Source of the DNA: Tannockella kyphosi
Lineage (GTDB): Bacteria > Bacillota_I > Bacilli_A > Erysipelotrichales > Coprobacillaceae
Assembly (NCBI RefSeq): GCF_021054785.1
Contig: NZ_CP088239.1
Coordinates: 1,140,001 to 1,172,000 of the forward strand
Length of the DNA: 32,000 nt
Direction of reading: 5' to 3'
Position numbers and translations under genes: made by a program. Shown here one piece after another: positions 9,679-29,990 of this stretch. Positions within the stretch are counted from its first letter, which is position 1, and each line of letters begins with the position of its first letter. The notes beneath the pieces were generated by a model. The model was not told the DNA's origin. It saw only the letters and a program-made list of their open reading frames with translations, and searched no databases.

Positions 9679-9850
9679 TATAAAAAGTCGTCCTATTTCT
9701 AGGAACGACTAATCGCGGTACCATCCTAGTTCATGTATAAATACATGCCCCTCAATTCACAATAACGGTGTGTCACCGGTAAGTTTTACTTACACTCGAA
9801 AGTAGCTTTCTCTATTCTATCATAAACATTCCCACCAACCATGTTCTCTC
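9679..9850 (-). promoter_or_regulatory. T-box riboswitch leader (Ala specifier GCU) with terminator/antiterminator
   Basis: On the minus strand the elements are an AGAGAG box, then a specifier loop GAAA-GCU-A (GCU is the rc of 9804-9806). Next comes the T-box motif GGAUGGUACCGCG (rc of about 9714-9726). The terminator is AGTCGTTCCTAGAAATAGGACGACT plus TTTTTAT (9679-9710), directly upstream of the alaS RBS. Confidence 0.85.
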
Positions 9851-9856
9851 TAAAAA

Positions 9857-9884
9857 AATATAAATAGATACTTATCTTTGTCAA
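9857..9884 (-). promoter_or_regulatory. Sigma-A type promoter for the T-box-alaS transcript
   Basis: On the minus strand there is TTGACA (rc of 9879-9884), a 16-17 nt spacer and then TATATT/ATATTT. It lies just upstream of the T-box stem I. Confidence 0.5.
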
Positions 9885-9941
9885 CGATTTAAAGAAATTA
9901 TACACAAAAACCATGTATATTACAATAACAATACTAAAAAA

Positions 9942-16055: not shown

Positions 16056-17288
16056 TTATACTCTTTGTCTTCTTTTTATATCAAAACATACATAAATAAC
16101 ACTAATAGTACCTAATGTCATATAGATTAATAAAGAACTATGATCACCAGTATCAACAGTACCCTCTACATCTACTTCATCACTAGCTATAAGTTCTTCC
16201 ACCATAAAAGTAGTGGATGCCTCACCAGTAGTAGAAACAATAGCTAACGTATGTTCACCTAATGATAGATTAAGAATATACTCATTACTAAGAGTAACTA
16301 TAGTACTCCCTTGTTCTAATGATAGATATTGTTCATCTACGATTTGTCCATCTACTAATGTATGTAAATAACTACTAAAAGAAGCATCACTAGTAAATGA
16401 AATCGTATCACTCTTCATTACAGTTTGATTATTTCCTAAAATAATAGAATGATTACCTTCTTCATTTACTACCACAGAAATAGTAACTAAATCTTCAAAT
16501 ATACTACTTGTATATTCTAGAACACCATCTTGATTATCATCGATACCTATTATACTAGCATCAATGACAACTTCTTCTATTTGATCACTTGCATAAAAGA
16601 TACTTCCATCTATTTCTCCTTGTCCAGAAGCAATCGTAAAAACAATATTCTCATAATCAAAATAATCATTTAAATCGATACTTTCCCCTGCACTTACCAT
16701 TAATTCTTGATATTCTAATAAAGAAGAATCGATTGGTAAAATAGAAAAATCTGTTAACACCTCACAACTAGATATTACCGTTCCTTGATAATACTCATCA
16801 GCAACACTTAGAAGTGTATAATCCCCAACATAGTTTGGTACACCTTGAACATAGCAACTATCATCTTGCCCTTGTAACTTATAAGAATATTCTATTTTAA
16901 TAGTTACATCATCACCTATATAATTTTCTTCTTCATAAAAGACAGTAGGTTCTACTGTTTGACCATAATACGTATCCTCTTGTATTACTTCTATATCCAT
17001 TTTACACAAGATATGCAAAGTAGAATCTTTTTGAATACTATAATCTTGTAAAGTATTTCCATCTTCTAATAATTTTCCAGCAAAATATAAAAGCTGATTT
17101 TCTGGTAATATACCTTCTTTATCTTCTATTTTTGCTTTCACATCTTCAATACGATCTGTTGCTTCTACTTCTAATGTAACATGTTTTCCACTGAGTGTTT
17201 TTACAAATATTTGCATTGCATAAGAATCAATGCTAGTACTTACCATCATCATGGCAAATACACTTATTATAATTATTATTTTTTTCAT
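16056..17288 (-). CDS. Secreted, C-terminally anchored surface protein with an N-terminal eukaryotic-type ubiquitin domain
   Basis: - Signal peptide: [24 protein letters not shown].
- Ubiquitin domain: [72 protein letters not shown] follows directly. It aligns without gaps to ubiquitin, with 50 of the first 68 residues identical by hand count.
- Body: about 280 aa of acidic, beta-rich, adhesin-like sequence.
- C-terminus: TVDTGD, a 20-aa hydrophobic stretch, then KRRQRV.
- Start: the ORF-track start at 17306 is a TTG. I prefer the ATG at 17288 (MKK...). Confidence 0.85.
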
Positions 17289-17304
17289 TTCATTTACCTT
17301 TACC

Positions 17305-17333
17305 AAAAAGCCCTTTTCTAAGAAAAGAGCTTT
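17305..17333 (-). terminator. Rho-independent terminator after purB (end of the pur operon)
   Basis: On the minus strand the sequence reads GCTCTTTTC-TTA-GAAAAGGGC followed by TTTTTGG. It lies in the 49-nt gap between the purB stop and the ubiquitin-domain gene start. Confidence 0.6.
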
Positions 17334-17337
17334 CTAT

Positions 17338-29880: not shown

Positions 29881-29986
29881 AAAAAAACAAAAAAGAGCCT
29901 GATCATCCGGACTCTTGCCCAGACGGTCGGCTCACTATGATTATACTCCCTGTGGTCAATTCCACTTCCGTCAGTTGTATAACTAC
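29881..29986 (-). promoter_or_regulatory. ZTP (pfl-motif) riboswitch with expression-platform terminator, leader of the fhs-pur operon
   Basis: - P1: UUAUAC pairs with GUAUAA.
- J1/2: ACUGACGGAA.
- P2: GUGG-AAUUGA-CCAC, followed by GGGAG.
- 3' subdomain: after a linker comes GCCGACCGUCUGGGCA.
- Pseudoknot: GACGG pairs with CCGUC. The G-to-A change relative to the consensus GGCGG:CCGCC is compensated.
- Terminator: AAGAGUC...GGCUCUU plus UUUUUGUUUUUUU follows, and its 5' arm abuts the pseudoknot strand. Confidence 0.8.
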
Positions 29987-29990
29987 AAAG

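Follow-up and report, generated by a model that had tools for sequence, protein, structure and literature searches.

Ubiquitin of the eukaryotic type is known in bacteria from two secreted proteins, BfUbb of Bacteroides fragilis and BoUbb of B. ovatus (PMC3352274, PMC5705921, PMC11467351). In 2018 one paper described B. fragilis as 'the only bacterium known' to possess it (PMC6194340); B. ovatus followed in 2024. BfUbb is a free protein of ~76 amino acids which is released to the medium, is imported through SusCD and inhibits a periplasmic peptidyl-prolyl isomerase. In the published view, eukaryote-type ubiquitin in bacteria is a Bacteroides curiosity and a diffusible toxin in both species. 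The present analysis concerns a gene of Tannockella kyphosi that seems to put ubiquitin to a different use. The stretch of DNA analysed, referred to here as the window, covers 32,000 nucleotides (positions 1,140,001 to 1,172,000 of contig NZ_CP088239.1). It contains a gene for a 410-residue protein in which a ubiquitin domain is followed by a long acidic stalk and an anchor-like tail. To judge from the sequence, it is quite probable that this protein displays ubiquitin on the surface of the T. kyphosi cell.

Like BfUbb and BoUbb, the T. kyphosi protein is the product of a bacterial gene, has a ubiquitin more than 60% identical to the eukaryotic one, was acquired horizontally and belongs to a gut organism. 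Sequence features and comparison also give it a Sec signal peptide directly before Met1 of ubiquitin, together with the loss of the conjugation-competent C-terminal Gly-Gly (GG). BfUbb is a small free protein with a C-terminal Cys. The T. kyphosi protein, in contrast, would have a mature form of 386 amino acids in which 313 further residues follow the ubiquitin; it has a three-module stalk, a C-terminal anchor and a Gram-positive host, and a Cys in its ubiquitin is not conserved. BfUbb has been reported to be closest to entomopoxvirus ubiquitin whereas the T. kyphosi domain is of the parabasalid type, a difference which points to a separate acquisition.

Other described systems resemble parts of the protein. 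The class B sortase substrates of Clostridioides difficile with the motif (S/P)PXTG(D), namely CD2831, CD3392 and CbpA (PMC4155245, PMC5569036), are alike in their signal peptide, Ig-like spacers, x-x-x-T-G-D motif, hydrophobic segment and basic tail, and clostridial class B substrates share the same pre-anchor module family. The motif in T. kyphosi is TVDTGD and not (S/P)PXTG, and its hidden Markov model (HMM) score lies below threshold. The Firmicutes adhesins with MBG_2 / MBG_3 repeats have a repeat unit homologous to the first stalk module, but in 9-18 tandem copies as compared to a single copy here, which is sub-significant in Pfam. To our knowledge no sortase substrate with a ubiquitin domain is known. 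The ubiquitin-like proteins (Ubls) of Bil and of the type II cyclic oligonucleotide-based antiphage signalling system (CBASS) also place a beta-grasp ubiquitin-like fold in a bacterium (10.1101/2023.09.26.559546). However, they are cytoplasmic, are encoded with E1, E2 and JAB proteins, have a Gly end and are distant from ubiquitin, none of which is true of the T. kyphosi protein. A conjugation or defence-type Ubl was rejected on the grounds that the window has no E1, E2 or JAB neighbours and that the protein has a signal peptide and no terminal Gly. The protein belongs with the known secreted bacterial ubiquitins, and the wider surface-anchored class appears to be undescribed. No paper on a surface-anchored bacterial ubiquitin was found in the literature searched, although absence there is not proof of absence.

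The window protein matches Pfam PF00240 over residues 27-97 (model positions 1-71 of 72) with E=1e-23 and 83.3 bits against a cut-off of 25.4, and 50 of 73 residues (68%) are identical to human ubiquitin. By these scores the match is far beyond chance. AlphaFold2 (AF2) places the elements in the beta-beta-alpha-beta-beta order of the beta-grasp fold (strands at 25-30, 36-41, 65-69 and 90-95, helix at 47-58) with a predicted local distance difference test (pLDDT) of 60-85, and all PDB sequence matches of the protein fall on ubiquitin. The closest of the eukaryotic matches obtained is a polyubiquitin repeat of Tritrichomonas foetus together with a termite-gut sequence (P0047, P0114), with 58 of 73 residues identical (79%). 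P0119, a 51%-identical relative from a metagenome assembly, has 64 of 73 residues in common with parabasalid ubiquitin and 56 of 73 with the human protein. The parabasalid residue is present in the window domain at 8 of 8 positions where that type differs from canonical ubiquitin (12, 20, 22, 25, 54, 57, 60 and 64). The best single-ubiquitin PDB chain is 5xy3_m, from what we take to be the Trichomonas vaginalis ribosome, with 113.6 bits as compared to ~96 for canonical ubiquitin. Identity, the eight shared substitutions and the 5xy3_m match indicate together that the domain is eukaryotic in origin and that its source is a parabasalid-type ubiquitin. The transfer could have been direct but it more likely went via other gut bacteria, since parabasalid-type ubiquitin is so widespread among them.

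All 7 canonical lysines are kept in the domain. It carries the changes R42L, I44Y, V70L and R72K, and the exposed LRLRGG tail is absent, its place being taken by 11 residues that run on into the stalk. Arg42, Val70, Arg72, Leu73 and Gly75-Gly76 are the determinants of E1 charging, conjugation and much of deubiquitinase and Ile44-patch recognition. With a permanent link to the stalk in place of the LRLRGG tail, the domain, as read from its sequence, cannot be conjugated. Across 41 relatives the conservation is 29-56% at positions 37, 39, 40, 42, 49 and 70 and 2-29% at 72-76. Positions 1-21 and 50-69 are mostly 85-100% conserved, surface-exposed lineage-specific residues included, and the exposed positions 12, 20, 54, 57, 60 and 64 are kept at 93-100%. 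The bacterial genes for parabasalid-type ubiquitin range from 26 to 64% in guanine plus cytosine (GC) content. Over ubiquitin residues 1-69, 610 of 703 pairs show saturation at synonymous sites, and the median ratio of nonsynonymous to synonymous substitution rates (dN/dS) is 0.075 where it is defined. These rates indicate strong purifying selection on the ubiquitin, with the residues required for conjugation as the exception. As the determinants of E1 charging, conjugation and Ile44-patch recognition have decayed, the pattern further indicates that the domain is kept for a function other than conjugation or classical Ile44-patch recognition. The conserved face of the ubiquitin points away from the stalk attachment point.

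It could be argued that the ubiquitin has no specific ligand at all and only caps the stalk or helps it to fold, being very stable, soluble and resistant to proteases. Ubiquitin is exceptionally stable, and the stalk is nearly free of Lys and Arg, suggesting protease pressure in the gut. Such a role is nevertheless very unlikely. The six exposed positions named above differ between eukaryotic lineages and are kept despite saturated synonymous sites, and a cap could be supplied by any of many beta-grasp or Ig domains of bacteria, with no need to capture a eukaryotic ubiquitin again and again.

The preliminary description of this DNA had placed a signal peptide (KK, a hydrophobic run, then SYA) at the N-terminus and had taken Met1 of ubiquitin as the first mature residue. 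Both proposals agree with what was found. The n-region is MKK, followed by a 13-residue hydrophobic core and STSIDSYA, with Ser at -3, Tyr at -2 and Ala at -1, and these 24 residues immediately precede MQIFVK of the ubiquitin. P0119 has the same arrangement if it is read from an upstream TTG. For a wider comparison one genome per bacterial and archaeal species was scanned; at least 387 ubiquitin-encoding loci were confirmed and the best 80 of these were examined. Of these 80, 67 proved to be bacterial-type, and the other 13, mostly short contigs of polyubiquitin, are evidently contamination from eukaryotes. A signal-peptide-like segment ending in Ala, Gly or Ser stands directly before Met1 in 63 of the 67 bacterial-type loci, and the signal peptides of these 63 loci are unrelated in sequence to each other. 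Sec export and a signal peptidase I cut after Ala24 would free Met1 of ubiquitin as the N-terminus of the T. kyphosi protein.

Behind the ubiquitin about 280 acidic residues had been noted. The stalk spans residues 98-376 (279 residues); Asp plus Glu make up 19.7% of it and Lys plus Arg 1.1%, and its isoelectric point is ~4.05. There are 3 Lys/Arg in the whole stalk (window 16161-16997) and none in residues 188-279, whereas the ubiquitin keeps its seven lysines; the scarcity may be an adaptation to gut proteases. No Pfam or NCBIfam family scores above threshold in the stalk and tail, and the stalk gives no Pfam match, to MBG_2 and MBG_3 included, even at E<=10. The first module had been likened to adhesin MBG-type modules from a segment beginning TYYGQTV. 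This segment is present and the likeness is supported by transitive homology only: residues 102-187 repeatedly align with ~80-residue units of giant proteins that overlap Pfam MBG_3/MBG_2 stretches (phmmer E=2.8e-23 and 1.1e-19 to MBG-repeat proteins). The middle domain matches no identified family.

The third module, residues ~280-365, has 2996 database matches at E<=1e-3. Modelled in isolation it is an Ig-like sandwich (AF2 pLDDT 87.8), and Foldseek gives Ig and Fn3-like matches with template modelling (TM) scores of ~0.5-0.65, among them titin-type Ig and a Clostridium thermocellum X1/Fn3-like domain. Its relatives have weak matches to CBM_X2 and Shr-like_HID, which rise above threshold in L034, a protein of a Bacilli metagenome-assembled genome (MAG). 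The C-termini of 154 proteins sharing this module were read, and 129 of them end in x-P-x-T-G-D, a membrane segment and a Lys/Arg tail, in register with TVDTGD. By homology, the module is very common in Firmicutes proteins immediately before the sorting signal, in line with the preliminary description, which had seen in the segment ending TTFMV a module common in Firmicutes wall proteins. An NCBI protein of 437 amino acids, P0215, has the same stalk (MBG-like module, middle domain, Ig-like module and an ETGD tail) and no ubiquitin in its available part. The existence of this stalk without ubiquitin suggests that ubiquitin was grafted onto a pre-existing surface-protein scaffold.

The tail had been described as TVDTGD, 20 hydrophobic residues and KRRQRV, with the three-part layout of a sortase sorting signal. 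The layout is as described, but the hydrophobic segment has 22 residues with a 17-residue core. As in sortase substrates, this segment and the basic tail lie at the extreme C-terminus of a protein whose sequence features and comparison give it an N-terminal signal peptide. The proposed closeness to clostridial xPxTGD variants fits the sole NCBIfam match of the tail, TIGR03063 (srtB_target), itself sub-threshold. In the 129 relatives the Pro position holds Pro in 106 (82%) and Val in 7, and the next position is Asp in 14. The tails of canonical relatives pass both TIGR03063 and TIGR01167, and some variants with Val or Ile pass TIGR01167 too. Val or Ile at the Pro position recurs in Erysipelotrichaceae proteins, as IVDTSD in P0119, LVQTSD in a ubiquitin protein from a MAG (L050) and PIDTGD in an unrelated enzyme, and this recurrence suggests that the variant is a lineage-specific motif. 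A loose motif scan of the loci of relatives gave three true sortases, all confirmed with NCBIfam. In the Bacilli protein L034 (2926-5075), a signal peptide, ubiquitin and an X2-like module precede an NPETSD tail, and the gene of this protein stands tail-to-tail with that of a class B sortase (TIGR03064 168.8, cut-off 153.75). A class F-like sortase lies just upstream of a short ubiquitin gene in L015, and a class C sortase lies 2.4 kb upstream in L068.

Several points weigh against a sortase-anchored ubiquitin standing at the tip of a surface stalk. A check with sorting-signal HMMs, which had been proposed for the tail, did return TIGR03063, but at 12.2 against a cut-off of 18.15, and returned no match to TIGR01167; the tail is below the threshold of every such model. 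It has Val in place of the Pro of 106 of the 129 relatives. The SrtB enzyme of C. difficile, which cleaves (S/P)PXTG between the T and the G, leaves NVQTG uncut in vitro (PMC4155245). There is no sortase in the 32-kb window, and a search seeded with the L034 SrtB found no Tannockella protein among its best 120 matches. The N-terminal placement of ubiquitin is partly expected, most bacterial surface anchors being C-terminal, and the high conservation of its surface could partly reflect folding constraints. The full-length AF2 model, built from a 9-sequence alignment, has a mean pLDDT of 46 and is unusable in residues 95-279, so that the stalk geometry is not modelled.

The points on the tail and on the sortase would be expected of a protein with the same topology and no sortase, in which the hydrophobic segment and KRRQRV form a stop-transfer membrane anchor and the acidic stalk spans the wall. 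We consider this unlikely. V-x-T-(G/S)-D is kept in three divergent Erysipelotrichaceae ubiquitin proteins and in the unrelated Erysipelotrichaceae enzyme, which would not be expected of a mere spacer. In 129 of the 154 relatives the position homologous to the tail holds a bona fide signal, and Val or Ile variants elsewhere do pass TIGR01167. From these comparisons, sortase anchoring of the T. kyphosi protein is likely, with a plain membrane anchor as the fallback, and the orientation of the ubiquitin is unchanged either way.

Part of the gene is strongly variable between strains. As compared to P0002, a 91%-identical allele found in metagenome assemblies, codons 66-141 show 58-73% nucleotide identity with dN 0.34 and dS 0.44. 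Outside these codons dN is 0.004 and dS 0.010, and the rest of the gene with its flanks is 99.4-100% identical (the flanks 99.4-99.8%). The variable segment is sharply bounded and runs from the C-terminal half of the ubiquitin across the linker into the first half of the MBG module; a third version of it is present in P0119. A diversity-generating retroelement was rejected as its source; the substitutions have no adenine bias and the window holds only housekeeping genes. Because the substitutions are not adenine-biased, the segment looks like an imported recombinant one rather than the product of retroelement mutagenesis. Exposed surface proteins that are under diversifying pressure typically show mosaicism of this kind.

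That the ubiquitin-stalk junction is the most variable part would also suit a precursor from which ubiquitin is clipped off the stalk as a diffusible antibacterial toxin that kills competitors. BfUbb and BoUbb, the sole characterised bacterial eukaryote-type ubiquitins, are both secreted toxins (PMC5705921, PMC11467351), and a few relatives are free 73-residue ubiquitins (Dyella, L070 and L084). On the other hand, BfUbb works in the Gram-negative periplasm after SusCD import, a pathway with no evident link to a Gram-positive wall-tethered protein. There is no conserved processing site, GG is lost, and the Cys at ubiquitin position 71 is found in neither P0002 nor P0119. The investment in an anchor and a 279-residue stalk, repeated across many lineages with five types of anchor, speaks for retention at the cell, and a toxin precursor is improbable.

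The explanation which we regard as probable is that of a Sec-exported, C-terminally anchored, stalk-borne ubiquitin serving as a binding or mimicry module. The preliminary description had likewise proposed a surface-exposed ubiquitin mimic, and each of its architectural claims, from signal peptide through stalk modules to tail, held up. In this explanation Sec would export the precursor and signal peptidase I would cut after Ala24, leaving Met1 as the free N-terminus of a non-conjugatable domain which, by its sequence, derives from a eukaryote and is closest to parabasalid (trichomonad) ubiquitin. The very acidic stalk of MBG-like, middle and Ig-like domains, for two of which there is homology, would keep the ubiquitin away from the cell. 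The tail would retain the protein in the membrane, after which a sortase most likely cuts between Thr380 and Gly381 and links it to peptidoglycan; if the tail is left uncut the protein would be membrane-anchored, and in both cases ubiquitin would be the most distal part. The ubiquitin would then bind or mimic through some face other than the classical one of Ile44 and the C-terminal tail, since the latter has decayed; the beta1-beta2 hairpin and residues 50-69 are kept. As to the partner, a eukaryotic one, either a gut protist or the host, is favoured on two grounds: the type of ubiquitin seems to go with habitat, and the design is shared by diverse free-living bacteria. The main alternative, and a serious one, is by analogy a bacterial receptor like ButCD, which BfUbb exploits. 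A ligand-free role as a cap is the least likely of the readings of the partner.

The same design recurs in other bacteria. Among the 67 bacterial-type loci, sortase-type tails occur in 19, from Clostridia, Bacilli, Erysipelotrichaceae and Mycoplasmatota MAGs and from the isolate Frisingicoccus caecimuris (DSM 28559), in which no signal peptide stands directly before the ubiquitin. Other relatives have three SLH repeats behind ubiquitin (L022), an autotransporter beta-domain (PF03797, 55.2 against 26) on the complete chromosome of Pseudomonas danubii, IPTL-CTERM (36.8 against 20.8) or a type IX secretion system sorting tail (Por_Secre_tail, 32.7 against 27). The ubiquitin is parabasalid-type in 38 of the 67 loci, mostly gut MAGs, and canonical-type in 19, mostly from soil, water or rumen organisms. 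One canonical-type ubiquitin with a signal peptide directly before it is encoded on plasmid pRUMAL01 of Ruminococcus albus 7 (L088 5923-6663); the 246-residue protein, WP_013483628.1, carries the annotation 'ubiquitin family protein' and shows no obvious anchor. pRUMAL01 is a 420-kb mobilizable megaplasmid, and the ubiquitin gene lies near those of a dockerin protein and a DDE transposase. When carriage of the ubiquitin loci by mobile elements was looked for, there was no phage match and this megaplasmid was the sole strong plasmid match. In five loci (L011, L047, L052, L074 and L087) an intact LRLRGG or LRLKGG is followed by a long C-terminal region; unlike in the window protein, a eukaryotic deubiquitinase might in principle free authentic ubiquitin from these. 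Metagenome proteins P0005-P0026 from ENA (670-698 amino acids, on contigs of 3-15 kb) form a tight group with about nine degenerate ubiquitin repeats, many without GG junctions.

A broader idea, which we put forward with some doubt, is that such display of ubiquitin is a widespread, convergently assembled bacterial strategy for engaging a eukaryotic partner, protist or host. Many lineages would, on this tentative idea, have captured eukaryotic ubiquitin and placed it, with Met1 free and in a form that cannot be cleaved off, at the outer end of surface proteins that use at least five anchoring modes. The lineages that might be involved are Clostridia, Bacilli, Erysipelotrichaceae, gut Alphaproteobacteria, Pseudomonas, Burkholderiales, Bacteroidota, Verrucomicrobiota and KSB1. 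If it is true, the type of ubiquitin would track the eukaryotes living nearby, so that bacteria of the gut would carry the parabasalid type and those of soil and water the canonical one.

T. kyphosi, a member of the Erysipelotrichaceae, has appeared in papers about microbes from the hindgut of Kyphosus, a herbivorous fish. The open reading frame (ORF) at 16056-17306 noted earlier exists and contains every peptide quoted from it; its strand had been left unstated, and it is the minus strand. It encodes 416 amino acids from a TTG start, and the ATG at 17288 gives the 410-residue product, which is identical to the NCBI protein annotated as a ubiquitin-like protein of T. kyphosi. A plus-strand reading of the same interval was rejected, as it gives only stop codons. 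The gene lies on a 2.26 Mb contig in a housekeeping region, between purB and an SDH_alpha-family gene; purL and a ROK kinase gene are further neighbours. As read from the ORF translations, the genes of the window include alaS, mnmA, the ROK kinase gene and a pur operon. GC content is ~30% in the window and likewise 30% in the gene, and nearly all long ORFs are on the minus strand. In metagenome assemblies P0002 and P0119 are each followed by the same SDH_alpha-family gene. Given the housekeeping context and the same synteny in independent assemblies, it is a genuine, stably integrated bacterial gene.

Some bacterial assemblies contain short polyubiquitin contigs that are clearly contamination (L044, L058, L062, L072 and others), and it may be asked whether the T. 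kyphosi gene is anything more than a eukaryotic contaminant, a pseudogene or a cytoplasmic modifier of a conjugation system, and not a functional surface protein. This is extremely unlikely. The frame is intact, the contig is long, purB and other bacterial genes flank it, its GC content matches the surroundings, the synteny is shared and the ubiquitin is under purifying selection; the protein has a signal peptide and no GG, and no E1, E2 or JAB gene lies nearby. Contamination was rejected for this gene.

The hairpin before the ubiquitin gene occupies most of the 49-nucleotide gap to purB, and no convincing promoter is present upstream. Because of this hairpin, the lack of a convincing promoter and a clear terminator after the gene, the ubiquitin gene may be the last of the pur transcription unit or may depend on read-through. 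The coordinates of all features are collected in Table 1, including two regulatory RNA elements elsewhere in the window.

Table 1. Position of the ubiquitin gene, the parts of its product and nearby elements in the window
Feature	Coordinates	Strand	Basis or remark
Complete gene, ubiquitin-tipped surface protein (surface location predicted)	16056..17288	-	ATG at 17288, stop codon 16056-16058; = WP_249028494.1
Signal peptide, residues 1-24, predicted signal peptidase I cut after Ala24	17217..17288	-	Sequence features and comparison
Ubiquitin domain, residues 25-97 (ubiquitin positions 1-73)	16998..17216	-	Pfam, identity, AF2
MBG-like stalk module, residues 102-187	16728..16985	-	phmmer matches to P0122, P0123, P0208
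Middle beta-rich acidic stalk domain, residues 188-279, no Lys/Arg	16452..16727	-	Aligns with P0215 and P0119
Ig-like pre-anchor module, residues 280-365	16194..16451	-	Homology, AF2, Foldseek
Sorting-signal-like tail: TVDTGD 377-382, hydrophobic segment 383-404, KRRQRV 405-410	16059..16160	-	
Strain-variable mosaic segment, codons 66-141	16866..17093	-	Comparison with allele P0002 (L003-L007)
Intrinsic-terminator-like hairpin directly after stop codon	16020..16045	-	
15-bp hairpin, purB stop to ubiquitin gene start	17304..17336	-	-15.7 kcal/mol, z -3.67
ZMP/ZTP riboswitch upstream of formate-tetrahydrofolate ligase / pur operon	29910..29988	-	56.3 bits
T-box leader upstream of alaS	9698..9893	-	126.4 bits

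The T. kyphosi protein points to a use of ubiquitin different from that of a diffusible toxin, with ubiquitin fixed outside a Gram-positive cell. The same layout is found in dozens of lineages with different anchoring machineries, and this would make it a general and so far unstudied way of presenting a core eukaryotic signalling protein. The conservation pattern points to a surface of ubiquitin and to a receptor yet to be found. As cultured carriers exist in Tannockella kyphosi, Frisingicoccus caecimuris DSM 28559, Ruminococcus albus 7 and Pseudomonas danubii, the question is directly testable.

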